NCBI GenBank assembly: GCA_040905425.1
Contig: JBBDRO010000007.1
Coordinates: forward strand, 1-62,048
DNA: 62,048 bases
Source of the DNA: Gemmatimonadota bacterium
GTDB lineage: Bacteria > Gemmatimonadota > Gemmatimonadetes > Longimicrobiales > RSA9
Direction: 5' to 3'
Shown: piece by piece, positions 40,750-59,157 of the stretch
How positions within the stretch are numbered: position 1 is the stretch's first letter
Layout: every line of letters starts with the position of its first letter
Position numbers and translations under genes: made by a program
The notes under the pieces: model-generated
Database searches by the model: none
What the model was told of the DNA's origin: nothing
Seen by the model: only the letters and a program-made list of their open reading frames with translations

Positions 40750-40991
40750 GCGCCGTGGAGGCGCGGGTCATCGGCGGGCTGGAACTGCGCATCGACCGCC
40801 TGCTGTGCGTGGGCTTCGAGGACTGCGTCACGGCGGCGCCCACCCTCTTCCGCATGGGGTCGGACGGCATAGCCACGTTCGTGGACGAGCCGGCGGACGT
40901 GGACGAGGCGGGGCTCGTGGCGGCGTGCCGCTCTTGCCCCGTGGACGCGCTCGAGCTGCGTGACGCCGCCGGCCACCTGCTGGCGCCATGA
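40746..40991 (+). CDS. Single-cluster ferredoxin, probably [3Fe-4S]
   Basis: TTGA overlap; IDRLLCVGFEDC (CxxFxxC) and ACRSCPVDAL. Confidence 0.85.
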   Translation: MSAVEARVIGGLELRIDRLLCVGFEDCVTAAPTLFRMGSDGIATFVDEPADVDEAGLVAACRSCPVDALELRDAAGHLLAP

Positions 40992-41890: not shown

Positions 41891-42378
41891 AGTTCCTCTG
41901 CCTGCCGTGCGACGAGGTGATGACCTTTGCCGAGCGCCAGCTCCCGGGGGACGGCACCCTGTCGGCGGTCTTCGCGTGTCCCGGCTGCGGGCGCGAGATG
42001 GCCATGCTCGCCAACCCGATGGAGACCCAGCTGGTGAGCAGCATGGGCGTGCAGATCGGTGGCCGGGGGGTGCCCGAGCAGCCGCTCGAGGGCACGCGCC
42101 GCGGCATGGCGGGGGGGCGTCCCGACGCCTTCGAGGAAGTGGCCGAGCCGTCCGCCGCGGCGCCCGAAGTGTCCGCCATGGCGAGCCCACCGGGCGCGGC
42201 CGGCGCCGCGCCGAGCTGGAGTCCCGAGGCCGTGGAGCGGCTGCAGCGCGTGCCGTCCTTCGTGCGCGGCATGGTCAAGCGCATCTACGCGGACTACTGC
42301 CGCGAGCGCGCCATCCCCACCATCACCCCCGAGGTCATGGACCGGGCGCGCACCGATCTGGGGCTGGAGGGGATGTGA
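41887..42378 (+). CDS. Zn-ribbon + PCP_red domain protein
   Basis: CLPC..CPGC N-terminus; C-terminal WSPEAVERLQRVPSFVRGMVKR..ITPEVMDRAR. Confidence 0.8.
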   Translation: MKFLCLPCDEVMTFAERQLPGDGTLSAVFACPGCGREMAMLANPMETQLVSSMGVQIGGRGVPEQPLEGTRRGMAGGRPDAFEEVAEPSAAAPEVSAMASPPGAAGAAPSWSPEAVERLQRVPSFVRGMVKRIYADYCRERAIPTITPEVMDRARTDLGLEGM

Positions 42379-44215: not shown

Positions 44216-44245
44216 TTGACACGGTCATGAATCGCTTCCTATCGT
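44216..44245 (+). promoter_or_regulatory. Sigma70-like promoter
   Basis: TTGACA (44216-21), 18-bp spacer, TATCGT (44240-45). Confidence 0.55.
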
Positions 44246-44572: not shown

Positions 44573-46780
44573 ATGTATCGCGAGCTTTACGTTCCCGTCG
44601 ACAATTCGAGCCTGTCCCACGCCGCCGTGGAGCGCGCCATCGAGCTGGCCAGCAGCTCGGGCGGCACCATCACGGCCAGCCACGTGTACGCGGCCCGGCT
44701 GCACGACGTGCGCTTCCGGCAGCTCGAAACCGGCCTCCCCGCACGCTTCCAGACACCCGACGAGATCAAGCGCCAGCGCAAGATCCACGACAAGCTGATC
44801 GAGAAGGGGCTGCAGCTCATTTCGGACTCCTTCCTGGACACCACGTCGCGCCGCTGCGTGGAGGCCGGCGTGTCGGTACGGCGCCAGCTCCTGGAGGGCA
44901 TCAACTACGAGGAGATTGCCCGCGAGGTGAACGGCGGGGAGGGCCGGCTGCCCAGCCTCATCGGCTTCGACCCCAACATCGCCGACAAGTACGATGGCGG
45001 GGACCGGGTGCGCGGCGACGTGCAGATCGGGGAGAACGGCCGCCTCATCGCCGAGGACGAGGAGCAGGAGGAGCGGCTGGCGGGCAGCAGCGGGCGCAGC
45101 TACGACCTGCTCTGCATCGGCGCCCACGGCATCGGCCGCCAGCCCTATTCCCAGCTCGGCGGCGTGGCCTCGCGGGTGCTGCGGAGCGTGGCCCGGGACG
45201 TCCTGCTCGTGCGCGAGGAGGAGCGCCCGCTCAAGGGCGGTGACTGGATCGTCTGCATCGACGGCTCCGCGTACTCCTACAAGGCGCTCCGCATAGCCCT
45301 CGAGATGGCCGCCGAGTACGGCGCCACGCTGCACGTCTGCTCCGCCTTCGACGTGGAGTACCACCACGTGGTCTTCGGCAACATCAAGGACGTGCTCTCC
45401 GTGCAGGCCTCCAAGGTGTTCAAGTTCGAGGAGCAGGAGGAGCTGCACAACAACATCATCGACAAGGGGCTGCTCAAGCTCTGCCAGGCCAACCTGAAGC
45501 GCGCCGAGGTGATGGCCTCCGAGCACCCCGACGTGGAGGTGAAGACGCAGATCCTGGTGGGCAAACCCTTCCAGTGCATCATGCAGTGGATCGAGGAACT
45601 GGAGCCCTCGCTGCTCGTGCTGGCGCGCCACGGCAGCCACCGCATCGAGGGCACCGAGATGGGCTCGCAGGCGGAGAACCTGTGCCGCCTGGCACCGTGC
45701 AGCGTGCTCCTGGTGGGCACCAGGGACGTGCGTCCCGAGGAGATCCCCTGGATCGAGGAGGACGGGTTCGCCGGGTTGGAATGGGCGCCGGAAGCCGAGG
45801 TGCGTATCCTCCGGGTGCCGCCCTTCGCACTGGGCATCGCGCGCCGCGCCGTGGAGGAGTTCGTCCTGGACAACTACGGGCCGGGGGCCAGCGGGACCTA
45901 CACCGAACCCGGTCGTGAGCACGGCTTCAAAGCGACGTCCCCTGAGCCCGCGTCCGGCGCCGCCAACGGGGCCGGTGCCGCGTCCTCCGCCGGCAACGGC
46001 AACGGGGCCGCCGCGGCCCACACGGACGGCGCGGCCGCCCAGGCTGGCGCCGCGCACGACACGGGCAACGGCAACGGCGCCGTTGCCCCGGTGCCGCTGC
46101 CCACGGTGACCAACGAGCGCCTGGACGAGGCCATTGCCAAGCTGCTCCCCACGCACATGCAGCTCATCATGGGCATCGGCACCGCCGAGGAGCTGGCGCT
46201 GGCCGAGAGCAAGGCCGAGCAGGCCATGGCGCGCACCGTGGTGGAGGGCAGCGACGCCGATGCCGAGCCGGCCACCCCCACCGTCACCACGAAGTGCCCC
46301 TACACCGGCCACGTGCAGACGCGCGAACGTACCGCCGCGGACCCGGTGGTGTGGACGGCGGAGGCGTTCGCCCGGCTGCGCGCCGTGCCGCTCATTGCCC
46401 GGCCGCTGGCCCGCAACACGGTGGAGCGCTTCGGCCGGGAGCACGGCTTCTGGCGCGTCACCACCGCCGTCATGGATGAGAACAAGCAGGCCATGATGGA
46501 GGCCGACGAGTTCGACATGGACACCATGGTGGTCATGTTCCGCGAGCTGCAGACCAAGCAGCTGCGCGCCGAGGCGGAGGGCGTGGACGGCCTGACCCCC
46601 GAGATGCGCCGCTTCATCGAGGAGGCCAAGGCCTCCGGCGTCACCCGCTGCCCCATCCGCGACGTGGTGGAGCAGGCGGACGCCTGCCCGGTGGACCTGA
46701 AGACCGTGTCCCCCGCCGACGCCAGGGCCGCCATGGAGCGCTTCATGGCCGATGAGCAGGAGGCGGGCGCCGGTGACTGA
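44573..46780 (+). CDS. Tandem universal stress protein with two PCP_red domains and three Cys-Pro motifs
   Basis: USP1 YVPVDNS..YDLLCIGAHG..GGVASRVLR; USP2 VCIDGS..MGSQAENLCR; PCP_red at W404 and W594. Confidence 0.85.
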   Translation: MYRELYVPVDNSSLSHAAVERAIELASSSGGTITASHVYAARLHDVRFRQLETGLPARFQTPDEIKRQRKIHDKLIEKGLQLISDSFLDTTSRRCVEAGVSVRRQLLEGINYEEIAREVNGGEGRLPSLIGFDPNIADKYDGGDRVRGDVQIGENGRLIAEDEEQEERLAGSSGRSYDLLCIGAHGIGRQPYSQLGGVASRVLRSVARDVLLVREEERPLKGGDWIVCIDGSAYSYKALRIALEMAAEYGATLHVCSAFDVEYHHVVFGNIKDVLSVQASKVFKFEEQEELHNNIIDKGLLKLCQANLKRAEVMASEHPDVEVKTQILVGKPFQCIMQWIEELEPSLLVLARHGSHRIEGTEMGSQAENLCRLAPCSVLLVGTRDVRPEEIPWIEEDGFAGLEWAPEAEVRILRVPPFALGIARRAVEEFVLDNYGPGASGTYTEPGREHGFKATSPEPASGAANGAGAASSAGNGNGAAAAHTDGAAAQAGAAHDTGNGNGAVAPVPLPTVTNERLDEAIAKLLPTHMQLIMGIGTAEELALAESKAEQAMARTVVEGSDADAEPATPTVTTKCPYTGHVQTRERTAADPVVWTAEAFARLRAVPLIARPLARNTVERFGREHGFWRVTTAVMDENKQAMMEADEFDMDTMVVMFRELQTKQLRAEAEGVDGLTPEMRRFIEEAKASGVTRCPIRDVVEQADACPVDLKTVSPADARAAMERFMADEQEAGAGD

Positions 46781-48110
46781 GGCCGTGACGCCAGAGCATC
46801 TGCCCCATGTGGTGGCGTGGAACCTCACGCGCCGCTGCAACCTGGCCTGCGCCCACTGCTACATCTCCGCAGGCTCGTGGCAGGGCACCGGCACGGACCT
46901 CACCACGGCCGAGGTGCGGCGCATCATGGACGAGATCCTGGCCATGGCCGGCGCGCCGCTCTTCATCCTCTCCGGGGGCGAGCCGCTGCTGCGCGCCGAT
47001 CTGGAAGCCATTGCCGAGCACGCCACCGCCGGCGGCGCCACCGTGGTGGTGGGTACCAACGGGACGCTGCTCAGCGCCGAGCGCATCGGCTCTCTCCGTT
47101 CGGCGGGCGTGCAGGGCGTGGCCGTGAGCGTGGATTCGCTCAACGAGCGCTACCACGACCGCTTCCGCCATGGCGACGGTGCGCTGGCCGACACGCTGGC
47201 GGCGGTGGATCGGCTGGCCGAGGGGGAACTGGATCTGGTGGTGCAGACCACCATCACGCGCGGCAACCGGGCCGAGCTGCCCGCGCTGGCCGCGTGGGCC
47301 GCCGAGCGGGGCGCCGTCTCCCTGAACATCTACTTCCTGGTAGCCACCGGGCGCGCGGCCGGCATGGACGGCCTGGCGCCGGCGGAGAACGAAGCGGTGC
47401 TGGAGGAGATCCTGGCGCTGGAGCGCGCCTACCGCGGCCGCATGATGGTGCGCGCCAAGTGCCAGCCGCAGCTCATGCGCCTGGCCTACGCCGCGCGTGA
47501 GACCGCCGAGGACGCCGTCTCGCCGCTGCTCAACTACGCCACCCGCTGCCCCTGCGGCGTGCACTACTGCCGGGTCACGCCCGAGGGGAAGCTCACGCCC
47601 TGCCCCTACACGCCGGTGGAGGCGGGCGACCTGCGGAGCCAGTCCTTTGCCGACGTCTGGAAGCGCTCGCCGGTGCTGGCGGCGTTGCGCGCCGGTGAGC
47701 TGGGCGGCCGCTGCGGGCGCTGTGAGTACCGGGAGGTGTGCGGCGGCTGCCGCGCCCGCGGGTTCGCGGTGGGGGGCGATCTGCTGGCCGAGGACCCGGC
47801 GTGCGTATACGAGCCGGCCGGCGGCCCGCCGGTGACGCCGGCGCGGACGCTGACCTACGGCGCCGCGCCGGCGGCGCCCACGCTGCCCTGGACCGACGAC
47901 GCCCGCGCCCGCATGGCGCGCGTGCCGGGCTTCGTACGCGCCGTGGTGAGTCAGCGCGTGGAGGGCTATGCGCGCGAGCGCGGCTATGCGTCGGTGACCC
48001 CGGATGTCCTGGATGAGGTGAGGCGCGAGATGCCCGTGGATTTCTCGAAGAAGCTGCCGTTCTTCCTGCGGCGCGCGGCCGCCGGGACCGGCCCGGGGGA
48101 GGACGCGTGA
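46773..48110 (+). CDS. Radical SAM/SPASM protein, AhbD/NirJ-like, with C-terminal PCP_red domain
   Basis: AGGAGG RBS/GTG; WNLTRRCNLACAHCY, SGGEPL, CPCG..PCPY, CGRC..CGGCRARG..EDPAC; tail WTDDARARMARVPGFVR. Confidence 0.88.
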   Translation: MTEAVTPEHLPHVVAWNLTRRCNLACAHCYISAGSWQGTGTDLTTAEVRRIMDEILAMAGAPLFILSGGEPLLRADLEAIAEHATAGGATVVVGTNGTLLSAERIGSLRSAGVQGVAVSVDSLNERYHDRFRHGDGALADTLAAVDRLAEGELDLVVQTTITRGNRAELPALAAWAAERGAVSLNIYFLVATGRAAGMDGLAPAENEAVLEEILALERAYRGRMMVRAKCQPQLMRLAYAARETAEDAVSPLLNYATRCPCGVHYCRVTPEGKLTPCPYTPVEAGDLRSQSFADVWKRSPVLAALRAGELGGRCGRCEYREVCGGCRARGFAVGGDLLAEDPACVYEPAGGPPVTPARTLTYGAAPAAPTLPWTDDARARMARVPGFVRAVVSQRVEGYARERGYASVTPDVLDEVRREMPVDFSKKLPFFLRRAAAGTGPGEDA

Positions 48111-49939
48111 CGATGATGCGCGGCAGGCGGCGGTGGCTCGCCGGGGAGCCGGCGCGGCCACGGAGGATGCGTTGGGCGGCGTGGCTGGCGGCAGCCCTCG
48201 TCGCTTGCATGGTGGAGCCGGCGGCGGCCCAGGAAGCCGCCCGTCAGTACGGCCATTTCCCGGGCATCGGCAGCCGTGCCGCGGTGTGGATCGCGGCGCA
48301 GCTCCACCTCATGTTCGCGGCCTTCGTGCTGGGCGTGCCCATGTTCGCCGTGGTGGTGGAGGCCATTGGCATTGCCAAGCAGGACAGCCGCTTCGACAAC
48401 CTGGCCAAGGAGTTCACCCGCCTGCTGGTGATTGCCTACAGCGCCACGGCCATCTGGGGCGCGGTGCTGGTCTTCCTGCTGACCACCCTCTATCCGGCCT
48501 TCTGGGGCCACCTGTCGGAGATCTTCGAAGTCTCCATGTGGATCTACGTGGGCCTCTTCTTCATCGAGTCCTTCACCCTCTACCTCTACTACTACGGCTG
48601 GGCGCGCTGGAAGAAGGGGCGCGCCAAGCTGGTGCATCTGGGGCTGGGCATCCTGCTCAACGTGTGGGGCACCACGGTGATGTTTATCGCGGACTCGTGG
48701 TTGAGCTACATGATGAGCCCGCCGGCCAATGTCACTCCGGACACCGCGCCGGGCATGGTGCAGCTGTGGAGCGCCATTGCCAACGCCACGTGGATGCCCA
48801 TCAACATCCACCGCCTCATAGCCAACGTGGTCTTCGGCGGCGCGGTGGTGGGCGGCTATGCCGCGTACCGCTTCCTGAACGCCAAGAGCAATGCCGAGCG
48901 CGCCCACTACGACTGGATGGGCTACATCGGCAACTTCATTGCCATCAGCGCGCTGCTCATCCTGCCCTTCGCGGGCTACTGGCTGGGGCGGGAGATCTAC
49001 GCCTACAACCAGTCCATGGGCATCACCATGATGGGTGGCTTCATGAGCTGGCTGTGGATCATCCAGGCCTTCCTCATCGGGGTGCTCTTCCTGGCTGCCA
49101 ACTACTACTTGTGGCTGGGGCTCGGCCGCATCCCGGGCGGTGAGCGCTTCGTGCCCTACACCAAGTGGATGCTGCTCGTGCTGGTGGTGGGCGTGGTGGT
49201 GTGGGCCACGCCGCACACCATGATCGCCGATCGGGACGAGCTGGTGGCCATGGGCGGCACGCACCACCCGTTCCTGGGGGTGCTGGGCGTCATGAGCGCC
49301 AAGAATACGGCGGTCAACCTGATGATCCTGACCACCTTCCTCTCCTTCCTTATGTACCGGCGGGCCAACAAGCGCCCGGTCGTGGCGTGGGCGCGCACCG
49401 GCACGGTGGCGCAGGCCACGGCGCTCCTGCTGGCGTCCGTGGTGGTGATCTTCTACGGCGTCTACGGCTACTTCGTCCCCGCCAACGTGCGCATCGGCTT
49501 CAGCGTGTACCAGGTGGCCGCCGTGCTGCTGGCCATCGTGGCGGTGGTGGTGCTGGACATGCTGCTCTCGCGGGGCGCCGAATCGCGCGGGGAGATCCGC
49601 TGGGGGGAGATGCCGGAGCGCGCCCAGTACGCCCTCCTGGTGCTGGTGGTGACCTTCACCTGGCTCATGGGGCTCATGGGCTTCGCGCGCAGCGGCATCC
49701 GCCAGCACTGGCACATCTGGGAGGTCATGCGGGACACCAGCGAGTGGGCGGCTACCCCCGCGCTGGGCTACGCCGGCACCGTGATCAGCGCGTGCGTCCT
49801 GCTCTTCCTGGGCATGATCGGTTTCATCTTCTGGCTGGGCAGTCTCATCGAGGAGCCGGCCTACGCCGAGGATCCCGCGCCTGGCCGCGAGGAGCCCCCA
49901 CCGCCCACGCTCGAGGCTGCGCTGGGAGGCACGCCATGA
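48107..49939 (+). CDS. Cytochrome bd subunit I (CydA)-like protein, atypical, no CydB
   Basis: QLHLMFAAFVLG (first heme His), FFIESFTLYLYYYGW, NIHRLIAN (second heme His), SGIRQHW at the GRQPW position; more than 12 TMs; no long Q-loop. Confidence 0.8.
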   Translation: MTMMRGRRRWLAGEPARPRRMRWAAWLAAALVACMVEPAAAQEAARQYGHFPGIGSRAAVWIAAQLHLMFAAFVLGVPMFAVVVEAIGIAKQDSRFDNLAKEFTRLLVIAYSATAIWGAVLVFLLTTLYPAFWGHLSEIFEVSMWIYVGLFFIESFTLYLYYYGWARWKKGRAKLVHLGLGILLNVWGTTVMFIADSWLSYMMSPPANVTPDTAPGMVQLWSAIANATWMPINIHRLIANVVFGGAVVGGYAAYRFLNAKSNAERAHYDWMGYIGNFIAISALLILPFAGYWLGREIYAYNQSMGITMMGGFMSWLWIIQAFLIGVLFLAANYYLWLGLGRIPGGERFVPYTKWMLLVLVVGVVVWATPHTMIADRDELVAMGGTHHPFLGVLGVMSAKNTAVNLMILTTFLSFLMYRRANKRPVVAWARTGTVAQATALLLASVVVIFYGVYGYFVPANVRIGFSVYQVAAVLLAIVAVVVLDMLLSRGAESRGEIRWGEMPERAQYALLVLVVTFTWLMGLMGFARSGIRQHWHIWEVMRDTSEWAATPALGYAGTVISACVLLFLGMIGFIFWLGSLIEEPAYAEDPAPGREEPPPPTLEAALGGTP

Positions 49940-50727
49940 CCAACCTCAAGATCTTCGCGGTGGTGGTGGGCACCATCCTGCTCTACGCGGCGCTGGCCAA
50001 CGCCATCCCACAGGTGCAGTCCGCCGTCCCGCAGGAGCTGGTCCTGGCGGGCGACGTGACGCCCGAGCAGCTCGTGGCCGCCGGCGAAGACCTGTTCAAC
50101 GGCGCCGGCGGCTGTACCGCCTGTCACGGCCTGGGCGCGCGTGCGCCCAACCTGATCGGCGACGAGGCGGGCACGGGCCCCATCGGCGTGCGCTGCGCCG
50201 AGCGTGTGCCGGCCACGGATTGCCGGAGCTACCTGTGGGAGTCCATGACGGATCCCAGCGCTTACGTGGTGGAGGGCTACGACCCCATCATGCCCGACGC
50301 GCGCCGCACCCTCTCCGAGCCGCAGATCTGGACGCTCGTGGCCTTCCTGCAGAACCAGGGCGGCACGGTGTCGGTGACCGCGGAGGACGTGGCGGTGGAG
50401 GAGGAGGCCGCGGCCGGCGGCGCGGCGGGCGGGGGCGGCGCTCCGGCCCTGGCCGGCGGCAGCACGGATCCGGAGGAGCTGCTCCAGGCGGCCACCTGCC
50501 TGGTGTGCCACCAGCTCGGTGATCAGGGCGCCGCCATCGGACCGCCCTTCGACGGCATGGGCGCCCGCCTGGACGCGGACGCCATCCGGCGCGGCATCCT
50601 CCTGCCCAACGCGGACACCGCGGCCGGCTTCGCCGCCATGGCGGGGACCATGCCCGCCACCTTCGGCGAGCAGCTGAACGCCACGCAGCTCGAGTCCATC
50701 GTGCAGTACCTGGCGGGGCTGCGGTGA
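49936..50727 (+). CDS. Membrane-anchored diheme cytochrome c
   Basis: CTACH..IMP and CLVCH..TMP; N-terminal TM; GGAGG RBS, ATGA overlap. Confidence 0.9.
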   Translation: MTNLKIFAVVVGTILLYAALANAIPQVQSAVPQELVLAGDVTPEQLVAAGEDLFNGAGGCTACHGLGARAPNLIGDEAGTGPIGVRCAERVPATDCRSYLWESMTDPSAYVVEGYDPIMPDARRTLSEPQIWTLVAFLQNQGGTVSVTAEDVAVEEEAAAGGAAGGGGAPALAGGSTDPEELLQAATCLVCHQLGDQGAAIGPPFDGMGARLDADAIRRGILLPNADTAAGFAAMAGTMPATFGEQLNATQLESIVQYLAGLR

Positions 50728-50773
50728 GACCGCACGGCGCGTACCGCTCACCCGCCGCACGGAGGCGCGGATC

Positions 50774-51571
50774 ATGAGCCGTCTCAGGCATCCCTTCTGG
50801 CAGACGGTCCTGCTGCTCGTGGCCGCCTACGTCCTCATCCGCTTCGGCATTGCCTACCTGCCGCAGGTGGTGGGCATGCGCAGCGCCCCGGTGCCGAGCA
50901 GCGTGGTGCTGCAGTACATGGCCACGGTGCTGGTGGGGTTGATCCTCTACGTGAGCGCGGACGCACAGCGCTGGCGGCGCTTTCGTGAGCCCATCCACGC
51001 GGCGCTCGTGGAGCCGGACAAGCGCATGGTGCGCATGGCGCTCCTGGTGGCGGTACCGCTGCTGGTGGGCTTCCTCACCTACGACAGCGTGCGTCCCACC
51101 GTGGCGGCGCCCGCGTCGCTGCGCTCCATCCACCCGGCGCCGCCGACCCAGATCACCGTCCGGGGGCGCACCGTGGCGCTGGCCGGCCTGGAGAACCCGC
51201 TGCGCTCCACGGGCTCGATGGAGGAGCACTACGAGGAGGGCAAGCGCGTCTACTACCAGAACTGCCTGCCCTGCCACGGGGACTATCTGGACGGGCAGGG
51301 CCACTATGCGCCCGCCTTCAACCCCGCGCCGCTCTCCTTCCAGGACAACGGCACCATCGCGCAGCTCTCCGAGAGCTTCGTGTTCTGGCGGGTGGTGAAG
51401 GGCGGGCCCGGCCTGCCGGCCGAGGGCGGTCCTGCCAATTCCGCCATGCCGGCCTGGGAGGACATCCTCACCGAGGAGGAGATCTGGGCCGTGATCCTCT
51501 TCCTCTACGAGCAGACGCCGTGGGACCCGCGCGTCATGGAGGTCCACGGGGCCGCCGAGGGGGAGCATTGA
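50774..51571 (+). CDS. 3-TM monoheme cytochrome c
   Basis: Three N-terminal TMs, CLPCHG, SAMPAW distal Met. Confidence 0.9.
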   Translation: MSRLRHPFWQTVLLLVAAYVLIRFGIAYLPQVVGMRSAPVPSSVVLQYMATVLVGLILYVSADAQRWRRFREPIHAALVEPDKRMVRMALLVAVPLLVGFLTYDSVRPTVAAPASLRSIHPAPPTQITVRGRTVALAGLENPLRSTGSMEEHYEEGKRVYYQNCLPCHGDYLDGQGHYAPAFNPAPLSFQDNGTIAQLSESFVFWRVVKGGPGLPAEGGPANSAMPAWEDILTEEEIWAVILFLYEQTPWDPRVMEVHGAAEGEH

Positions 51572-53163
51572 GCGGGCGCGGCGGACGGAGCGGGCGCGCC
51601 TCGAGGGTGCGCATGGGCCGCGTGGCCGGCATGGCTACCGTCGCTTGCTTGCTGGGCGTGGGGCCGCTGGTGGCGCAGCAGGAGGGCCATCCCGGTAAAC
51701 CGGTCTACGACAGATGGTGCGCGGGCTGCCACGGCGTGGACGGTCAGGGCCAGGGGCCGGCCGCCGCCTACATGCTGCCGCGGCCGCGCGATTTCACGCA
51801 GGCACTCTACCAGATCCGCACCACGGCGAGCGGCTCCATCCCCACGGACGCTGACATCCGTAAGATCATCGACGAAGGGATGCCGGGCACCGCCATGCCG
51901 GGCTGGGAGGAGGCGCTGAGCAGCGCGGAGCGGGATGCGCTGGTGGATTACCTGAAGACCTTCTCCCGCTACTTCGAGACGGACGAGCCGCGGGTGCTCG
52001 AATTCGGCGGCGCGCCCGGGGTGAGTGACGAACTGCTGGAGGCGGGCAGAGAGGCCTACCAGACGCTGGAGTGCTTCAAGTGCCACGGCCAGGCCGGCCG
52101 CGGTGACGGCGCGTCGGCCCCCACGCAGGCGGACGCCGACGACTTCCCGGTGCGGCCCGCGGACCTCACGCAGCCCTGGCTCTTCAGCGGCGGTGCTTCG
52201 GTGGAGGAGATCTACCGGCGCTTCCTCACCGGTCTGGACGGCACCCCCATGCCGTCCTACGCCGATGTGCTGGAAGCGGGTGTGGTGACAGAGGAACAGC
52301 TCTGGGGGCTGGCCCACTACGTTCGTGCGCTGGGCGGTGACGCGCCCCGCGTACGTGAGGTCGTGGCGGCCGCCCGGGTCGAGGACGTCCTGCCCACCGC
52401 CGCCGATGACGCGGCCTGGGAGGACGCGGAGCGCTTCTGGATCCCGCTGGCCGGGCAGATCATCGAGGAGCCGCGCTGGTTCGCGCCGGCCGTAACGGGG
52501 GTCTGGGTGCAGGCGCTGCACGATGGCCGGGAGCTGGCGCTGCGCGTGAGCTGGAACGATCGCTCGGAGAGCCCCGATCCCGAGTGGGCCGGCTGGCGCG
52601 ATCAGGTGAACGCCATCATGGCGCCCGGCGCGGGCGAGCAGGCCGGGGGCGAAGCGTCCGACGGCATGGCCGTCTGGTTCCCGCCGCCGGACGCGCGGGA
52701 CCGCCCCTACTTCCTCATGGGCAGCGAGCGCGCGCCGGTGCGCGTGTGGCACTGGGACAGCCGGAGCGGCGCGGTGGAGCGCCTCGGCCGCGGCCTCGGC
52801 AACCTCGAATCTTTGCCGGCTGACGAGGGCGCGCTACAGGGCCAGGCCGAATTCGATCAGGGTCGCTGGAGCGTGCTGCTGCGTCGTCCGTTGCTCGACG
52901 GTGACAGCGCGGCCGCCACCCTGATTCCCGCGGGCCAGCCGGTCCCCATGGCGTTCATGGTCTGGGATGGGGACAACGCCGAGGCCGGCACGCGCGGGGC
53001 GGTCAGCAGCTGGTACTACGTCCAACTCACGGAGCCCACGCCACCCACCGTGTACGCCCTGCCGGTGCTGGCCGTGCTCCTCACCGCCGCGCTGGGCCTG
53101 CTCGTGGTACGCCGGGCGCAGCGGCGCGTACGCACCCCGGCCGCGGCTCCGGCCGCGGCCTGA
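51568..53163 (+). CDS. Diheme cytochrome c fused to ethylbenzene-dehydrogenase-gamma-like (DOMON heme) domain, C-terminal TM
   Basis: CAGCHG..PRDFT..GTAMP; CFKCHG..GTPMP; LRVSWND, DGMAVWFP, PYFLMG, FMVWDG. Start uncertain (51568, 51613 or 51631). Confidence 0.82.
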   Translation: MSGRGGRSGRASRVRMGRVAGMATVACLLGVGPLVAQQEGHPGKPVYDRWCAGCHGVDGQGQGPAAAYMLPRPRDFTQALYQIRTTASGSIPTDADIRKIIDEGMPGTAMPGWEEALSSAERDALVDYLKTFSRYFETDEPRVLEFGGAPGVSDELLEAGREAYQTLECFKCHGQAGRGDGASAPTQADADDFPVRPADLTQPWLFSGGASVEEIYRRFLTGLDGTPMPSYADVLEAGVVTEEQLWGLAHYVRALGGDAPRVREVVAAARVEDVLPTAADDAAWEDAERFWIPLAGQIIEEPRWFAPAVTGVWVQALHDGRELALRVSWNDRSESPDPEWAGWRDQVNAIMAPGAGEQAGGEASDGMAVWFPPPDARDRPYFLMGSERAPVRVWHWDSRSGAVERLGRGLGNLESLPADEGALQGQAEFDQGRWSVLLRRPLLDGDSAAATLIPAGQPVPMAFMVWDGDNAEAGTRGAVSSWYYVQLTEPTPPTVYALPVLAVLLTAALGLLVVRRAQRRVRTPAAAPAAA

Positions 53164-53201
53164 TGGCTCACCATCTGAACCGAAACTCGAGTGGAGGCAG
53201 C

Positions 53202-54092
53202 ATGTTGAATCTGACGCGCAATACCCGCACCCTGGCCGTCCTCTTCACCTGCACGGCGCTGGCCGCCTGCGGCGGTGGGGACGAAGCCGCCGACGCCGGC
53301 GCGGATGACACCGGCGCCGACGCCCAGCCCCAGGTGGTGGCGGACGCCGGCAGCATCACCGGCAGCATCGACTTCACCGGTACGCCGCCCACGCCCGAGC
53401 CCATCGACATGAGCGCCGAGCCGGATTGCGCCGCCAAGCATGACGGCACGCCCACGCAGCGTGCCGTGGTGGTCAACAACGGCAAGCTGGCCAACGTCTT
53501 CGTGCGCATCAGCCAGGGTGTCCAGGGCGGCGGGGGCGCGCCCTCCGGGAGCGCCGCGGTGGATCAGGACGGCTGCGTCTACGACCCGCACGTGGTGGGT
53601 GTGCAGACCGGCCAGGAGGTGGAGTTCCAGAACAGCGACGGCCTGCTGCACAACATCAAGGCCAGCCCGGCCAACAACCGGCCGTTCAACATCAGCCAGC
53701 CCACCACCATGACCTCGCGGCAGACCTTCAATTCGCCCGAGGTCATGATCCCGGTGGTCTGTGACGTCCACGGCTGGATGAACATGTACATCGGCGTGGT
53801 GGACCATCCCTACTTCGACACGAGCGGCCAGGACGGCTCCTTCACGATCGCCAACGTGGCGCCTGGCACCTACACGGTGGAGACCTGGCACGAGGTCTAT
53901 GGCGTGCAGAGCCAGCAGGTGACGGTGGAGCCCAACGGCACCGCCGAGCTTACCTTTGCCTATGACGCCGGCATGGCTGCCACGGCCGTGGTACCGCTCG
54001 GTGATCCGATCGATCCGCACGGCGTACACGCGTCCCCCGGCGCGGGGGTTTCCCATCCGGCAGCGCACGCCACCGCGGCCGGCTCACGCTGA
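53202..54092 (+). CDS. Cupredoxin-like lipoprotein with carboxypeptidase-regulatory-like domain
   Basis: GGAGG RBS, lipobox LAAC, NSDGLLHNI and CDVHGWM (H,C,H,M type-1 Cu set), GTYTVETWHE. Confidence 0.8.
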   Translation: MLNLTRNTRTLAVLFTCTALAACGGGDEAADAGADDTGADAQPQVVADAGSITGSIDFTGTPPTPEPIDMSAEPDCAAKHDGTPTQRAVVVNNGKLANVFVRISQGVQGGGGAPSGSAAVDQDGCVYDPHVVGVQTGQEVEFQNSDGLLHNIKASPANNRPFNISQPTTMTSRQTFNSPEVMIPVVCDVHGWMNMYIGVVDHPYFDTSGQDGSFTIANVAPGTYTVETWHEVYGVQSQQVTVEPNGTAELTFAYDAGMAATAVVPLGDPIDPHGVHASPGAGVSHPAAHATAAGSR

Positions 54093-54131
54093 GCGTGCCC
54101 GCTCCCCGTTCCCGGTCACCGGAGAGAACAC

Positions 54132-54860
54132 ATGGCTGAATTCTGGCAGCTCTCCCCGAACGCCTCCACGTACGGCGCGGACATCGACAGGATGTTCTAC
54201 GCGATCGTGATCCTCACCGGCGTGGTGTTCGTAGTCGTGGAAGTCCTGCTGCTCTGGTTCCTGATCCGGTACCGGGGGCGGGAGGGCAGGCGGGCTGTGC
54301 ATACGCATGGCAACATGCGCATGGAGATCCTGTGGACCGCCGCCACCGCCATCATCGTGGTGGTCATCGGCGTGGGCAGCCGCGGTCTCTGGCTGGAGAT
54401 CAAGTCACCAGACCGCTTTCCCGAGCCCGGCATCTCACTGGACGTTACCGCCAAGCAGTTCGAGTGGAACGTCACTTATCCGGGCGCCGACGGCGTGCTG
54501 GGCAGCCCGGATGACTTCACGGCCCGCAACCGGTTCAACGTGCCGGTAGGCACGCCGGTGCACGTGACGCTGCGGGCGGAGGACGTGATCCACTCCTTCT
54601 TCCTGCCGGAGCTGCGCTTCAAGCAGGACGTGGTGCCGGGCATGGAGATTCCCGCCTGGTTCGAGGTGACCACGGCCGGGGAGTACGTGGTGGGCTGCGC
54701 GGAACTCTGCGGCCTGGGCCACTACCGGATGATGGGCACCATGACCGCGCTGGACGCGGCGGACTGGGAGGCCTGGTACACGGCGGAGAGTGTAGCGGCC
54801 GCGCAGGCGGCCGGGACGCTGAACGTGGCATCGGTCGACAATGAAGGGAGCGTGCGATGA
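54132..54860 (+). CDS. coxB: Cytochrome c oxidase subunit II
   Basis: Two TMs, EILWT, QFEW, CuA DVIHSF and CAELCGLGHYRM. Confidence 0.96.
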   Translation: MAEFWQLSPNASTYGADIDRMFYAIVILTGVVFVVVEVLLLWFLIRYRGREGRRAVHTHGNMRMEILWTAATAIIVVVIGVGSRGLWLEIKSPDRFPEPGISLDVTAKQFEWNVTYPGADGVLGSPDDFTARNRFNVPVGTPVHVTLRAEDVIHSFFLPELRFKQDVVPGMEIPAWFEVTTAGEYVVGCAELCGLGHYRMMGTMTALDAADWEAWYTAESVAAAQAAGTLNVASVDNEGSVR

Positions 54861-56644
54861 GCGTCGATGCCCAGGCGCAGGAGGCCCACGCGGGGGCGGG
54901 GGCGGGGCACCACGAGGAGATCCCCTGGCTGCGGCGCTATGTGTTCTCCTCGGATCACAAGGTCATCGGGATCCAGTTCCTCTTCATGAGCCTGTTCTTT
55001 CTGGTCGTGGGTGGACTGCTGGCCATGGCCATGCGCTGGCAGATCGCGTGGCCCTCCAGCCAGGAGATGCCGCTGCCGGGTGGGGGCATGCTGCCGGACG
55101 TCATGGTGACGGACGGCATCATGCTGCCCGAGTTCTACAACGCGCTGGTCACCATGCACGGCACCATCATGGTCTTCTTTGCCATCATGCCGCTGCTCGT
55201 GGCCGTGTGGGCCAACTACCTCATCCCGCTGCAGATCGGGGCCGAGGACATGGCGTTCCCGCGCCTCAACATGGCCTCCTTCTGGCTGGCCGCGCCGGCG
55301 GGCATCCTGATGCTGGCCAGCTTCTGGGTGGTGGGCGGTGCCGCCAACGCGGGGTGGACGGCCTACGCGCCGCTCAGCGTCAGTGAGGTCTACAGCGGGG
55401 TCAAGCTAGGGCAGCAGCTCTGGTGCCTGAGCCTCATCATCCTGGGCTTCTCCTCGCTCATGGGGGCGGTGAACTACATCACCACGGTGATCAACATGCG
55501 GGCGCCGGGCCTCACCTGGTTCCGCCTGCCGCTTTCGGTGTGGGGCCTCACCGTCACGTCGGTGCTGGTCCTGCTGGCCGTGCCCGTGCTGGCCGGTGGC
55601 CTCATCATGATGTTCTTCGATATCACCATCGGCACCAGCTTCTTCCAGCCGGAGGGCGGGGGCCAGCCACTGCTCTGGCAGCACCTGTTCTGGTTCTTCG
55701 GCCATCCCGAGGTCTACATCCTGATCCTGCCGGCCATGGGATTCGTCTCGGACGTCATCGCCAACGGCGCCCGCAAACCAGTCTTCGGCTACCACGCCAT
55801 GGTCTGGGCCATCGTGGCCATCGGCTTCATCGGCTGGGTGGTGTGGGGCCACCACATGTTCATGAGCGGGATGACGCCCGTGCTGGGCGGCTTCTTCATG
55901 GTAAGCACGCTCATCATCGCGGTGCCTTCCGCCATCAAGACCTTCAACTGGCTGGGCACCCTGTGGGGCGGCAACATCCGCTTTCACACGCCCATGTTGT
56001 GGGCACTGGGCTTCGTCTCCCTCTTCGTCATCGGCGGGTTGTCGGGGATCTTCCTGGCCGCGGCGCCGGTGGATATTCCTCTGCACGACACCTATTTCGT
56101 GGTGGCGCACATTCACTACGTGCTGGTGGGCGGCAGCCTCTTCGGCATCTTCAGCGCCATCACCTTCTGGTTCCCGAAGATGTTCGGGCGCATGATGAAC
56201 GAGGGGCTGGGCAAGCTGCACTTCGCGCTCACATTCATCTTCTTCAACGCCACCTTCTTCCCCATGCACATGCTGGGGAGCGGCGGCATGATGCGGCGCC
56301 TCTACGACCCCACCCAGTATCCCCATCTGCAGCCGCAACAGGACACCAACGTCTTCATCACGGTGTGCGCGCTGCTGCTCTTTGCCAGCCAGTTGATCCT
56401 GGTGGTGAACTTTTTCTGGAGCCTCTTCCGCGGGAAGCGGGCGCCGGAGAATCCGTGGCAGGCCAACTCCCTGGAGTGGAGCGCCCCCTCGCCGCCGCCG
56501 CATGGCAACTGGGGAGGTCGTCTGCCGGCGGTGCATCGCGGTCCGTACGAGTACAGCCACCCGGAGCGGGAGAGCGACTACTGGTTGCAGACCGATCCGA
56601 CGGGCGCCGCCCCGGCGCCCGCTCCCACCACCAGCGGAGGGTGA
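54857..56644 (+). CDS. coxA: Cytochrome c oxidase subunit I, family A1
   Basis: TMHG, DMAFPRLN (D-channel), WFFGHPEVY, WGHHM, PSAIK (K-channel), AHIHY, MMRR. Confidence 0.97.
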   Translation: MSVDAQAQEAHAGAGAGHHEEIPWLRRYVFSSDHKVIGIQFLFMSLFFLVVGGLLAMAMRWQIAWPSSQEMPLPGGGMLPDVMVTDGIMLPEFYNALVTMHGTIMVFFAIMPLLVAVWANYLIPLQIGAEDMAFPRLNMASFWLAAPAGILMLASFWVVGGAANAGWTAYAPLSVSEVYSGVKLGQQLWCLSLIILGFSSLMGAVNYITTVINMRAPGLTWFRLPLSVWGLTVTSVLVLLAVPVLAGGLIMMFFDITIGTSFFQPEGGGQPLLWQHLFWFFGHPEVYILILPAMGFVSDVIANGARKPVFGYHAMVWAIVAIGFIGWVVWGHHMFMSGMTPVLGGFFMVSTLIIAVPSAIKTFNWLGTLWGGNIRFHTPMLWALGFVSLFVIGGLSGIFLAAAPVDIPLHDTYFVVAHIHYVLVGGSLFGIFSAITFWFPKMFGRMMNEGLGKLHFALTFIFFNATFFPMHMLGSGGMMRRLYDPTQYPHLQPQQDTNVFITVCALLLFASQLILVVNFFWSLFRGKRAPENPWQANSLEWSAPSPPPHGNWGGRLPAVHRGPYEYSHPERESDYWLQTDPTGAAPAPAPTTSGG

Positions 56645-56648
56645 GGCC

Positions 56649-57308
56649 ATGAGCAACACCACTGCGGCGGCGCTGGAGCGTCCGACCACGGGCCCCGGAT
56701 CGGGCTTCGGCGTCTACAACATGAAGCTGGGCATGTGGGTCTTCCTCCTCTCGGAGGTGATGTTCTTCACCGCCCTGATCGGCGCCTACATCATTCTGCG
56801 CTTCACCAATCCCGGGCATTTCGCCGAGCCGGGCGTGGTGCTGAACGTGCCGCTCACGGCGGCCAACACGTTCATCCTCATCTGCAGCTCCGTCACCATG
56901 GTGAAGGCGTTCGCCGAGATCGAGGCGGGCAACCAGCGTGGTCTGCGTATGTACCTGGCCGCTACCGCCCTGCTGGGGATCCTCTTCCTGGGCGTGCAGG
57001 CGTACGAGTACTCCAAGCTGGTGCACGAGGGCTTCGTTCCGGCGGCGGAATTCTATGCGGCGCTGGGCCGGGACGGAGCGGGGGCGGTGGAGGGCGGCCC
57101 GCTCTACGGCGCCACCTTCTACACCATGACCGGCTTCCACGGGGCGCATGTGACCATCGGTGTGCTCTGCCTCCTGTTCACCACGGTCATGGCGTTCCGG
57201 GGCCGCTACACGGCCGCCAACCACGGCGGTGTGGAGATCATGGGGCTGTACTGGCACTTCGTGGACCTGGTCTGGATCATCCTGTTCACCATCGTCTACC
57301 TCATCTAG
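56649..57308 (+). CDS. coxC: Cytochrome c oxidase subunit III
   Basis: GMWVFLLSEVMFF, NTFILICSS, TGFHGAHV, YWHFVDLVW. Confidence 0.95.
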   Translation: MSNTTAAALERPTTGPGSGFGVYNMKLGMWVFLLSEVMFFTALIGAYIILRFTNPGHFAEPGVVLNVPLTAANTFILICSSVTMVKAFAEIEAGNQRGLRMYLAATALLGILFLGVQAYEYSKLVHEGFVPAAEFYAALGRDGAGAVEGGPLYGATFYTMTGFHGAHVTIGVLCLLFTTVMAFRGRYTAANHGGVEIMGLYWHFVDLVWIILFTIVYLI

Positions 57309-57316
57309 GGGCAGCC

Positions 57317-57610
57317 ATGGAGTCCGTGAATCTGACGGCCGACGCCGGGCACAAGGGGCCCAGCTACTTCCTGGTGTTCATCATCCTGGGCGTGCTCACG
57401 TTGGTGGAGGTGGCCGTGGCCTTCATCGCGGCTCTCCCGGACACGCTCCTCATCCTGATCCTGCTCGGGTTGGCGGTGTGGAAGGCGCTGCTGGTAGCGC
57501 TCTACTACATGCACCTGCGCTTCGAGCCCGCCAAGCTCTGGTGGATGGTGATGGCACCGCTCCCGCTGGGCCTCATCCTCGTGGGCATCGTGCTCATCGA
57601 AGGATGGTGA
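57317..57610 (+). CDS. coxD: Cytochrome c oxidase subunit IV (CtaF/CyoD-type)
   Basis: LTLVEV, KALLVALYYMHLRFE; 3 TMs. Confidence 0.88.
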   Translation: MESVNLTADAGHKGPSYFLVFIILGVLTLVEVAVAFIAALPDTLLILILLGLAVWKALLVALYYMHLRFEPAKLWWMVMAPLPLGLILVGIVLIEGW

Positions 57611-57613
57611 CCC

Positions 57614-57754
57614 GTGCACGACATGATGTGGGGAATGTTCTGGGGCGGCATGCTCATGGCGCTGCCACCCACCGCGGTGGGCATCGGCATAGCGGTGTTC
57701 CTGTGGCGCCAGCAGTTTCCCGCACGGCGCTCAGGCGGGACCGGCGAAGGCTGA
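57614..57754 (+). CDS. Putative 46-aa single-TM peptide (not in the ORF track)
   Basis: GTG 3 nt after the coxD stop: MHDMMWGMFWGGMLMALPPTAVGIGIAVFLWRQQFPARRSGGTGEG; hydrophobic core, basic tail. Confidence 0.6.
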   Translation: MHDMMWGMFWGGMLMALPPTAVGIGIAVFLWRQQFPARRSGGTGEG

Positions 57755-57777: not shown

Positions 57778-57963
57778 TCCAGGCACCTGGTGTTGTGTAG
57801 CCGAATTCTCGTGTAGCACCGAGGGCGTGGATGCGCCCGCCCAGGTAGGCGCGAGGAGGAGAGCATAGCCGTAGCTATGCCGACGACGAGCAACGACGCT
57901 GGGTGGGATGCAGGCGCGGTCGAATGCAACGGGAATTCGGCTACACAACACGAGGAGGCCGGA
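57778..57963 (+). ncRNA. Candidate structured RNA / long rod-like inverted repeat
   Basis: Nested concentric stems 57790-812/57929-951, 57836-844/57899-907 and 57863-869/57874-880; G-U and G-A mismatches favour the + strand. Confidence 0.6.
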
Positions 57964-57964
57964 C

Positions 57965-58933
57965 ATGCGTATCGAAAACAAGCTCACCCGCGGCGTGGTT
58001 GCCGGGCTGGCGGGGGGCGCGGCGCTGGCGCTGTGGTTCCTGATCGTGGACGCCATGCGCGGCCAGCCGTTCGCCACGCCCACCTTCGTTGCCCACACCC
58101 TGGCGGGGCTGGAGGGCATGGGCACCGGCTTCGGTACGCTGGCTGTCTACACCATCCTGCACTTCGCGGCGTTCGCGGCCGTGGGCGTGGCCGTGGTCTG
58201 GCTCGTGGAGGCGGCCACCATGCCCGCGTCGTTCATGCTGGGGCTGGTGCTGGGCTTTCTGCTCTTCGACTTCGTCTTCTACGCCGGCCTGGTCATGTCT
58301 GGCACCAACGTGGCCGCCGCGCTGGGCTGGCCGGAGGTGCTGGTGGGCAATCTCATTGCGGGGCTCACGGTGGTGCGCGTGATCCGGAGCACGGGTTCCG
58401 AGGAGGTGCCCCGGCTGCGGGACATCATGCGCGATCACGACACCATTCGCGAGGGGCTGGTCGGTGGTGTGCTCGCGGCCGTGGCGGTCATGGTGTGGTT
58501 TCTGATCCTGGACGTGGTTCGCGGCCAGCTCTTCTTCACGCCCGCCGCCCTCGGCTCGGCGCTCTTCCACGGTGCCCGCGGCACCGCGGAGGTGGTGCTC
58601 ACGGTGCCTGTGGTGCTCGGCTACACCGGCGTGCATCTGGTGGCCTTTCTGGCGGTGGGCCTGGTGGCCTCCGCCATGGTGGAGGGGGCGCGCAGGGAGC
58701 CGCCCCTGCTGCTTGCCATGGTGCTTTTCTTCGTCACGCTGGAGGTCATGTTCATCGGCTTGATGGCCATCATGGCCATCTGGCTCCTGGAATCGCTGAG
58801 CTGGTGGACCGTGGTGGCGGCCAATCTCATTGCCGCCGCCGTGCTGGGCGGCTATCTGCTCTGGGAGCACCCGGAGATTCGTGAAAGCCTGAACCACGAC
58901 CTGGAGGAGGAGCACCACCAGGAGATGGTATGA
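57965..58933 (+). CDS. Internally duplicated 8-TM membrane protein
   Basis: GAGGAGG RBS; two halves each with WFL..D..RGQ.F.TP and YT..H..AF.AVG. Confidence 0.8.
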   Translation: MRIENKLTRGVVAGLAGGAALALWFLIVDAMRGQPFATPTFVAHTLAGLEGMGTGFGTLAVYTILHFAAFAAVGVAVVWLVEAATMPASFMLGLVLGFLLFDFVFYAGLVMSGTNVAAALGWPEVLVGNLIAGLTVVRVIRSTGSEEVPRLRDIMRDHDTIREGLVGGVLAAVAVMVWFLILDVVRGQLFFTPAALGSALFHGARGTAEVVLTVPVVLGYTGVHLVAFLAVGLVASAMVEGARREPPLLLAMVLFFVTLEVMFIGLMAIMAIWLLESLSWWTVVAANLIAAAVLGGYLLWEHPEIRESLNHDLEEEHHQEMV

Positions 58934-59157
58934 GCCCTTCCCTGGTGGCGTTCCACAGGGTGCTCATCATGGCCGGCATCCTCTTCTGCCTGGGCTACGG
59001 AGGGTGGGAAGCGTACGCCTGGCTGCGCGGCGGCGGCGGAGGCAGCCTGGTGCTGGCCACGGTCTTCGGCCTGCTGGCGGCCGGGCTGGCGGTCTACCTC
59101 TGGAATCTGGACCGCGTGCTGCACCCCCGCGGGCGGGGTGGAGATGGCGGCACCTGA
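58930..59157 (+). CDS. Small 2-TM protein
   Basis: ATGA overlap, 75 aa, FHRVLI then two hydrophobic helices. Confidence 0.7.
   Translation: MSPSLVAFHRVLIMAGILFCLGYGGWEAYAWLRGGGGGSLVLATVFGLLAAGLAVYLWNLDRVLHPRGRGGDGGT

Follow-up and report, generated by a model that had tools for sequence, protein, structure and literature searches.

A CydA-like protein, a cytochrome c wire and an aa3-type oxidase in one gene row of a Gemmatimonadota genome: a candidate substitute for complex III

Contig JBBDRO010000007.1 of a Gemmatimonadota bacterium (Longimicrobiales; NCBI GenBank assembly GCA_040905425.1) encodes in one co-directional row a CydA-like membrane protein, three cytochrome c subunits, a lipoprotein of predicted cupredoxin type and the genes coxBACD of a haem-copper oxidase, preceded by a radical SAM enzyme and proteins with PCP_red domains. 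The stretch of DNA analysed, referred to as the window, comprises positions 1 to 62,048 of the forward strand and has a G+C content of about 71%. An earlier, sequence-only reading had singled out the genes from position 48107 onward as a candidate new respiratory supercomplex and had offered two explanations for the CydA-like module, namely replacement of complex III or a second, cytochrome c-fed reductase of O2 or NO beside the oxidase. The genes of the row and their immediate surroundings are the following (TM, transmembrane helix).

40964..41890, + strand: Mrp/NUBPL-type P-loop NTPase (PF10609, E 8e-56)
41887..42366, + strand: PCP_red-domain protein of 160 amino acids (PF08369, E 4e-13)
44573..46780, + strand: USP domains fused to PCP_red domains, 735 amino acids (PF00582, E 1e-34; PF08369, E 9e-13)
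46752..48110, + strand: radical SAM/SPASM enzyme with C-terminal PCP_red domain (PF04055, PF13186, PF08369)
48107 (or 48167)..49939, + strand: CydA-like subunit, predicted to carry haem b (PF01654, E 4e-18)
49936..50727, + strand: dihaem cytochrome c, here c2 (1 TM, 2 CxxCH; PF13442, PF00034)
50774..51571, + strand: monohaem cytochrome c, here c1 (3 TM, 1 CxxCH)
51613..53163, + strand: dihaem cytochrome c with EB_dh domain and C-terminal TM, here c2EB (PF09459, E 3e-16)
53163..54092, + strand: predicted cupredoxin lipoprotein with a CarboxypepD_reg-like beta-sandwich (AlphaFold2, Foldseek)
54132..54860, + strand: coxB (TIGR02866, 153.6 bits, cut-off 147.7)
54857..56644, + strand: coxA (PF00115, 503 bits; TIGR02891, 658 bits, slightly below the cut-off of 670.75)
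56649..57308, + strand: coxC (PF00510)
57317..57610, + strand: coxD (PF03626)
57908..58933, + strand: polytopic membrane protein of unknown family, without Pfam or NCBIfam match

The nine genes from the CydA-like gene through coxD follow each other on the + strand without interruption, as had been described, with intergenic gaps of -4, 46, 41, -1, 39, -4, 4 and 8 bases. Position 48107 does not hold as the start of the unit: the stop of the radical SAM gene overlaps the start of the CydA-like gene by 4 bases, and along the whole + strand row from the USP/PCP_red gene through coxD (44573-57610) the gaps range from -29 to +46 bases. The co-directional unit starts at 44573 and probably already at 40964, with the Mrp-like gene followed by the small PCP_red protein. 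A scan for promoters and terminators was uninformative, yielding one promoter-like site (44216-44245) against 0.9 expected and terminator-like sites within genes only. None of the window open reading frames (ORFs) scanned encodes a bc complex, an alternative complex III (ACIII) or, in line with the earlier reading, a CydB protein (Pfam CydB was absent from all of them). Molybdopterin or NxrAB-type genes were not found among the scanned window ORFs either, and ActB, ActC, ActD and ActF-like tblastn queries gave no match in the window.

The CydA-like protein scores 65.6 bits against PF01654 (cut-off 26.2), and its closest matches are proteins of Gemmatimonadota/Longimicrobiales metagenome-assembled genomes (MAGs) with 77-97% identity. 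Residue numbers refer to its 590-residue form; 20 has to be added for the 610-residue form. When a profile of 33 relatives was aligned to E. coli CydA using hhalign, only TM1-5 aligned (probability 95.9), with the alignment ending at E. coli residue 212. Within this part, His19 of the E. coli protein corresponds to His47, Glu99 to Tyr127, Glu107 to Glu134, His126 to His157 and His186 to His215, so that both haem histidines seen in the sequence-only reading (His19 and His186) are retained; His47, at the position kept in the whole bd superfamily, is present in 79/79 rows of the alignment of relatives. The AlphaFold2 model (pLDDT 84.2, pTM 0.85) consists of an N-terminal signal-like helix and 13 TM helices, which reconciles the 14 helices given in the literature with a cytoplasmic C-terminus. 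Four TM helices occupy the position of the Q-loop in this model, and its longest periplasmic loop comprises about 29 residues; both the missing Q-loop and the extra helices had been noted before and are borne out here by alignment and model. A Foldseek search of the PDB returned CydA chains for all of the top ten matches (E 1.5e-9 to 3.5e-6, target TM-score 0.52-0.64) and no solved structure closer to the model than these.

Across 81 rows, that is the window and the 80 loci described below, His47, Glu65, Tyr127, Glu134, His157, His215, Glu244 and Asp249 are invariant, as are Glu358, His367, Met376, Lys379, Arg508, Arg512 and His516. The haem b595 ligand Glu445 of E. coli, located in the motif E-V-G-R-Q-P-W, is replaced by Ser509 in A-R-S-G-I-R-Q-H-W, in which R-Q-H-W is kept; the absence of a Glu at this position had been pointed out correctly, and Ser is found there in 75/79 rows. 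Met393, the b558 ligand of the E. coli protein, lies beyond the reach of the alignments; the invariant residues Met376 and Lys379, where a helix running from outside to inside begins, are candidates for its role. Taken together, alignment and model predict that the protein belongs to the cytochrome bd superfamily and adopts the CydA fold. With canonical bd (CydABX; E. coli bd-I, PDB 6rko and 6rx4) it shares this fold as well as the equivalents of His19, Glu107, His126 and His186. In contrast to canonical bd, it has no adjacent cydB, lacks the Q-loop with Lys252 and Glu257, contains four inserted TM helices, carries Tyr in place of Glu99 and Ser in place of Glu445, and is accompanied by c-type cytochromes. 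In a quickly built maximum-likelihood tree with 42 rows, the branch leading to E. coli CydA measures 8.46 changes per column, so that the placement in a bd-superfamily tree proposed earlier as a check separates the window protein from canonical quinol-oxidising CydA. The nearest named relatives beyond its own clade are bd-like proteins of Nitrospirota, which form a clade (SH-aLRT 100) apart from the groups holding the window protein; a member of a Nitrospirota family (P0141) is 39% identical to it (E 3e-123), and the homology to the Nitrospirota proteins extends over the full length.

The three cytochrome subunits contain five CxxCH motifs in total (2 + 1 + 2 over c2, c1 and c2EB), in agreement with the five c haems predicted previously. 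No solved homologue was found for the TM part of c1, in which residues 117-124, directly after TM3, form an invariant R-x-x-H-P-x-x-P motif that may provide the CydA-like subunit with a haem ligand. The N-terminal dihaem part of c2EB matches PDB 6h5l_B (E 5e-52), an entry titled in the database only as 'conserved hypothetical cytochrome protein', which we take to be a dihaem cytochrome of Kuenenia. Its C-terminal part matches EbdC (2ivf_C, E 9e-10) and NxrC (7b04_C, E 1e-6), and c2EB is thus predicted to be a protein of the 'alternative NxrC' type. The Met ligand of EbdC corresponds to M369 in the window protein and is kept in only 31/60 homologues, and the position of the Lys ligand is taken by Arg or Gly, with no Lys there in the window. 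Because these ligands are not conserved, haem b in the EB_dh domain is doubtful, and we do not count the domain as a certain haem b carrier; of the earlier label EbdC-like, the domain assignment stands while the haem ligands of EbdC do not.

The lipoprotein encoded at 53163-54092 carries a lipobox-like L-A-A-C. Sequence searches against the PDB gave weak plastocyanin matches only (E 0.2), and it was the fold search that settled its identity: the AlphaFold2 model (pLDDT 83) matches plastocyanin, pseudoazurin and amicyanin in Foldseek (E 1e-6 to 1e-5, TM-score about 0.7, probability 1.00). His150, Cys187, His190 and Met193 are conserved to at least 95% in 46 sequences, and the protein is accordingly a predicted type-1 copper cupredoxin, as had been surmised. 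CoxB features the CuA motif C-x3-C-x3-H-x2-M and no fused cytochrome c domain, and therefore needs an outside electron donor. CoxA carries F-G-H-P-E-V in helix VI. The set of CoxA, CoxB, CoxC and CoxD with CuA and G-H-P-E-V fits the A1 oxidase of the sequence-only reading, the assignment to type A1 from this motif following a classification rule that we presume to apply.

In order to assess how widespread and how constant this arrangement is, we searched for relatives of the CydA-like protein. Among 8000 scored 90%-identity clusters, 7537 are related at E <=1e-3; among 50%-identity representatives there are 1161 relatives, and for 222 of these E is <=1e-30. Scanning one genome per species with an 8-sequence alignment yielded 595 related places, of which the best 80 were kept together with 10 kb flanks. 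This sample favours close relatives, comprising 62 loci of Gemmatimonadota and 18 others from NC10, Rokubacteria, Rhodothermales, Acidobacteriota/Thermoanaerobaculia, Myxococcota, Chloroflexota and one unclassified genome; the ratios given in the following for Gemmatimonadota and for other phyla count only loci long enough to test. The CydA-like gene is followed by c2 in 51/51 loci of Gemmatimonadota and 17/17 of other phyla, by c1 in 49/49 and 15/15, and by c2EB in 45/45 and 13/13. As far as the neighbours were examined, no cydB lies beside the CydA-like gene in the 80 loci. A cupredoxin gene is found downstream in 41/42 loci of Gemmatimonadota and 2/12 of other phyla, and coxA downstream in 40/40 and 2/11, or within 10 kb in 28/28 and 5/9, respectively. 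The conserved linkage to coxBACD that had been expected thus holds throughout the testable Gemmatimonadota but not outside them, and since coxA lies downstream in just 2/11 loci there, we regard the link as lineage-specific. Both Rokubacteria loci have cox genes following the module, a Myxococcota locus (L062) has a cupredoxin beside the module and no cox, and in an NC10 locus (L061) a pyrroloquinoline quinone (PQQ) dehydrogenase and small cytochromes c lie near it. The same Myxococcota locus also encodes, at L062:4284-8750 (- strand), a second, divergent CydA-like protein with its own dihaem c/EB_dh protein, which recalls the bd-like_3/bd-like_4 duplication of Nitrospira.

The radical SAM gene lies upstream in 59/59 loci of Gemmatimonadota and 1/14 of other phyla, and anywhere in the locus in 27/27 and 6/8; the USP/PCP_red gene lies upstream in 44/44 testable loci of Gemmatimonadota and is present in 6/8 fully testable loci of other phyla. 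The small PCP_red protein (41887-42366) has tblastn matches in 64/80 loci, although some of these matches fall on PCP_red domains in other proteins. Homologues of the Mrp-like NTPase, which is of the Fe-S carrier type and probably an accessory gene, occur near the module in 50/80 loci; in Gemmatimonadota and NC10 they precede it, in Rhodothermales and Acidobacteriota they follow it. Three PCP_red proteins, an Mrp/NUBPL-type NTPase and an AhbD/NirJ-like enzyme accompany the module from phylum to phylum, and the constant unit is the four-gene core together with the radical SAM/PCP_red accessory set.

The radical SAM enzyme shares with AhbD and NirJ, which act in haem b and haem d1 synthesis, the CxxxCxxC motif and the SPASM domain, and these families are its best NCBIfam matches (AhbD TIGR04545, 279 bits; NirJ2 TIGR04055, 275 bits). 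It differs from them in that its scores stay below the equivalog cut-offs of 500, in its extra C-terminal PCP_red domain and in its fixed place beside a respiratory module, and we assign it, as a prediction, to the wider AhbD/NirJ (tetrapyrrole side-chain) clade only. PCP_red is the tetrapyrrole-covering domain of BchB. The set could tailor a haem for the module; just as well, it could serve the organism in general as its O2-independent coprohaem decarboxylase. In one Acidobacteriota locus (L075) a ferrochelatase gene and an amine-oxidase-type (HemY-like) gene are located upstream, beside the module.

Natural fusions connect the components further. In three relatives (P0121, P0125 and P0137) one chain continues from the CydA-like part into a TM helix and cytochrome c domains, and the tail of P0121 aligns with the entire c2 of the window (32% identity, E 7e-41). 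In two loci, L061 of NC10 and L077, c1 and c2EB form one ORF. A Longimicrobiales MAG (L025:11752-13278) encodes an ActD domain (PF11821, E 4e-41) fused in frame to c2. P0390, with 1428 residues and 16 member sequences, unites a CydA-like part that is 56% identical to the window protein with CcoN, CcoO and a cytochrome c domain in a single chain, and its junction fits the modelled topology of 13 TM helices with the C-terminus inside. A predicted protein of 1171 residues (P0391) combines an MMPL transporter domain with a CydA-like part and may be a gene-calling artefact. In three loci of Acidobacteriota/Thermoanaerobaculia (L075:5466-11638, L076:514-6644 and L078:5264-11644), ActA, ActB (E 1.5e-287 to 6f0k_B) and an ActE-like cytochrome c precede the CydA-like module, and ActC, ActD and ActF were not found within the locus (10 kb). 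The Rhodothermales loci L068-L070 have ActC, ActD, ActE-like and ActF-like genes as well as coxBAC directly upstream of the module.

Judged by its predicted gene products, the four-gene core is already known as a kind from Nitrospira, Nitrospina, anammox bacteria and Manganitrophus genomes. A bd-like protein with 14 predicted TM helices, conserved haem ligands, no Q-loop and an N-terminal part aligning with bd is described in PMC3578206, with its gene clustered with mono- and dihaem cytochromes c, an alternative NxrC and cupredoxin-like proteins in the nitrite oxidoreductase (NXR) clusters of Nitrospina, Nitrospira and Kuenenia; an ACIII-like role is explicitly proposed there. The Nitrospira cluster is reported to be among the 40 most transcribed genes (PMC6606698). 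TO_1 of the Manganitrophaceae is described as a bd-like protein, two cytochromes c and a periplasmic cytochrome b (Manganitrophaceae preprint). Finally, the OR-N family was defined by Murali, Gennis and Hemp (2021 preprint), with 14 helices in N1 and N2 and with OR-N2 often lacking a second CydA-like gene. The term 'candidate new' was therefore too strong, as the same composition occurs in PMC3578206, PMC6606698, TO_1 and OR-N, and both explanations offered for the window have been in print since 2013.

The same four components recur in the Nitrospira bd-like_3/alt_NxrC_2, Nitrospina and Kuenenia clusters and in TO_1, and cupredoxin-like genes are in the cluster there as well. Unlike the NXR clusters, the window module has no NXR, falls into a separate clade and is linked to coxBACD; its radical SAM/USP/PCP_red/Mrp set is unmentioned in the cited descriptions of NXR clusters, and its host is a Gemmatimonadota, presumably heterotrophic in contrast to the nitrite oxidisers. 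With OR-N of types N1 and N2 the window protein shares the absence of a quinol site, 14 predicted helices, the retained His19 and an operon with alternative electron carriers, and it appears to fit these types by their described features. Like ACIII (ActABCDEF, often beside caa3/aa3 genes), the module combines a polytopic membrane subunit with a wire of several c haems and is encoded upstream of cox, and Act subunits recombine with it in the ActA-ActB-ActE hybrids and the ActD::c2 fusion. Unlike ACIII, it lacks the Fe-S subunit ActB as well as ActC/ActF of NrfD type, and its membrane subunit is a predicted haem b protein of bd fold. What is new is that the core is kept in all testable loci, that it is linked to coxA in Gemmatimonadota, and that natural fusions as well as ActA-ActB-ActE hybrids without ActC exist. 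Our literature search turned up no paper naming the module in Gemmatimonadota, although the OR-N distribution tables of Murali et al. may already include the phylum, and, among the cryo-EM papers listed, none on a bd-like protein. Two surveys of Gemmatimonadota interpret it as cytochrome bd.

Since the core genes stand in the same order in all loci long enough to test (45/45 and 13/13) and CydA-like::c2 as well as c1::c2EB fusions occur, the genes at 48107-53163 very probably encode one membrane complex, the Gemmatimonadota counterpart of the bd-like/two-c/alternative-NxrC module (TO_1, OR-N1/N2 type), co-operonic with the cupredoxin, the aa3-type A1 oxidase and the accessory set. As to its function, we tentatively favour a quinol:cytochrome c/cupredoxin oxidoreductase that would feed the aa3 oxidase in place of complex III. 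From the gene content, conserved order, fusions, modelled fold and conserved ligands shown above, we infer quinol oxidation, the cofactors, which way the electrons flow and that the module touches the oxidase, as follows. Menaquinol would be oxidised on the CydA-like subunit next to a low-spin haem b on the periplasmic side, held by His215 together with Met376 or Lys379. The five c haems and the copper lipoprotein would relay the electrons to the CuA site of CoxB, from where they would reach O2 at haem a3-CuB, and the module and the haem-copper oxidase may form a physical supercomplex.

Operons combining a donor complex with an oxidase are usual for bc and ACIII. The role in place of complex III draws its support from the cupredoxin (41/42) and coxA (40/40) in the loci of Gemmatimonadota and from the cox genes in both Rokubacteria loci, as well as from the cbb3 fusion P0390, since a single chain would hardly need two terminal oxidases. 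A relationship to ACIII parts, visible in the hybrids of L075, L076 and L078 and in the ActD::c2 fusion of L025, points the same way. So does the need of CoxB for a donor in combination with the scarcity of known complexes: for 326 Gemmatimonadota genomes, coxA is reported in 266, petB in 75, qcrB in 15, ACIII in less than 10%, cydA in 173 and cydB in 95, and the authors suggest that novel complex III modules may exist (PMC9426454).

Several points weigh against this role. The protein has no recognisable quinol site, the Q-loop (Lys252 and Glu257 in E. coli) being absent in both the hhalign alignment and the AlphaFold2 model. The residues of the di-haem O2 site and of the cytoplasmic proton channel, namely His47, Glu134 and His157, with Tyr127 for Glu99, are invariant in the 81 rows, yet quinol oxidation on the periplasmic side would not need them. 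In Rhodothermales the module stands beside Act genes and coxBAC, so that it does not replace ACIII there, and outside Gemmatimonadota coxA follows in 2/11 loci. The petB and ACIII figures are KEGG calls on incomplete MAGs, and the cydA calls (K00425) may or may not capture the CydA-like family. A hand count of 25 of the coxA-positive genomes in the supplement of PMC9426454, the range over which the genome lists are complete, gives petB in 7, cydA without cydB in 5 and neither petB nor cydA in 8, too few to decide; petB occurs in 0/5 of the cydA-positive, cydB-negative genomes versus 7/20 of the others, a difference that is not significant. Furthermore, P0390 comes from one contig, and the authors who defined OR-N call the family oxygen reductases (Murali preprint).

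This last designation leads to the second explanation of the sequence-only reading, a cytochrome c- or cupredoxin-fed reductase of O2 or NO (or peroxide) sharing its periplasmic wire with the aa3 oxidase, which is the main rival and which we consider possible but rather doubtful. Electrons would here run from the c haems via the haem b at His215 to a di-haem site at His47, with protons taken from the cytoplasm, so that the chain would end in two branches, one of high affinity or protective function and one pumping protons. The invariant residues argue for such an enzyme, as His47, Glu134, His157, Tyr127, Glu65, Glu244 and Asp249 map to positions of the haem d ligand and the proton channel. According to the Murali preprint, all characterised members of the superfamily reduce O2, and non-catalytic 'b-type' paralogues lose the channel glutamates. 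Expression of TO_1 at the 98th percentile against the 24th for cbb3 in Manganitrophus (Manganitrophaceae preprint) and the literature on Nitrospinota, most of which keep OR-N while few have other oxidases, are likewise consistent with it, as are the coexistence of the module with ACIII genes and cox in Rhodothermales and its place beside a PQQ dehydrogenase and small cytochromes c in NC10. The dedicated AhbD/NirJ-like enzyme and the PCP_red proteins could make a special catalytic haem. On the other hand, two terminal oxidases would be redundant in one operon (40/40 loci) or in one polypeptide (P0390), and the b595 ligand Glu445 is replaced by Ser in 75/79 rows and Glu99 by Tyr. A reductase would also leave the ActABE hybrids of Acidobacteriota without a quinol entry point and most cox-bearing Gemmatimonadota without a known quinol:cytochrome c step (PMC9426454), and homologues are described as conserved in strictly anaerobic anammox bacteria (PMC6606698, PMC3578206). 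Between the two earlier explanations, context and fusions thus lean towards the complex III substitute and the invariant residues towards the reductase.

It is improbable, in our estimate, that the module is an electron hub or membrane anchor without chemistry of its own, docking NXR in nitrite oxidisers, ActAB in Acidobacteriota or PQQ dehydrogenases in NC10, feeding whichever oxidase is present and perhaps running in reverse to quinone at the expense of the proton-motive force. The variation of the neighbours by phylum around a constant core would agree with this, EB_dh is the type of docking/haem subunit known from type II DMSO reductases, and proposals of an NXR anchor and of reverse electron transport have been published (PMC6606698). 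No periplasmic dehydrogenase partner adjoins the module in the window, however, the EB_dh haem ligands are not conserved, and an anchor could do without the buried Glu, His and Tyr residues that are invariant here. A canonical, quinol-oxidising cytochrome bd with cydB elsewhere in the genome, suggested by the PF01654 match and the public annotation of homologues as 'cytochrome ubiquinol oxidase subunit I', is hardly credible and was rejected in view of the alignment limited to TM1-5, the E. coli branch of 8.46, the four extra TM helices in place of a Q-loop, the dihaem c next in 51/51 and 17/17 loci, the absence of an adjacent cydB among the neighbours examined and the reported excess of cydA over cydB calls (173 versus 95; PMC9426454).

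Returning to the complex III substitute, a wider form of it can be formulated, which we hold to be unlikely as a whole: the module would be a third kind of quinol:cytochrome c oxidoreductase beside bc and ACIII, built on a bd scaffold and docking on haem-copper oxidases (aa3, or cbb3 in P0390). Most Gemmatimonadota, and with them many Rokubacteria, NC10, Acidobacteriota and Rhodothermales, would have their 'missing complex III' in this module, which would depend on the dedicated AhbD/NirJ-like enzyme and its PCP_red partners for supplying or tailoring one haem.

Ever since the first Nitrospira genome, the bd-like proteins without Q-loop have posed a puzzle, and they are highly expressed in nitrite and manganese oxidisers. 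The window and the 595 related places show that the module is not limited to nitrite oxidisers but represents a respiratory unit common in widespread phyla of soils and the sea, and its tie to ordinary haem-copper oxidases offers a cleaner setting for tests than slow-growing chemolithotrophs. Should it prove to oxidise quinol, it would supply the step for which bc and ACIII genes are rarely found in Gemmatimonadota, and models of respiration built on genomes would have to be revised; should it instead reduce O2 or NO, many annotations as 'cytochrome bd quinol oxidase' would be wrong in donor and partner. Under either functional reading, the conservation of the radical SAM/PCP_red genes points to an undescribed haem-handling step.

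Some further genes of the window were recorded alongside the module. An ABC ATPase and an ABC-2 permease (about 42400-44110) lie between the PCP_red and USP genes on the same strand, and homologues of the permease occupy the same position in 9 loci. The polytopic protein at 57908-58933 has a same-strand downstream homologue in 12 loci; in the Atlas, its neighbours are clusters without names from Binatota, Gemmatimonadota and Methylomirabilota. Homologues of an HmuY-like protein (haem-binding type; 59138-59830) are found near the module in 18/80 loci, mostly upstream and on the opposite strand. Farther away, positions 7989-15997 hold a row of MoxR AAA ATPase, DUF58, BatA/VWA and DUF4175 genes (Bat aerotolerance-operon type) with two flanking DUF4159 genes, and the gene at 24012-26087 encodes a chorismate-binding domain fused to an aminotransferase class IV domain (PabB-PabC type).

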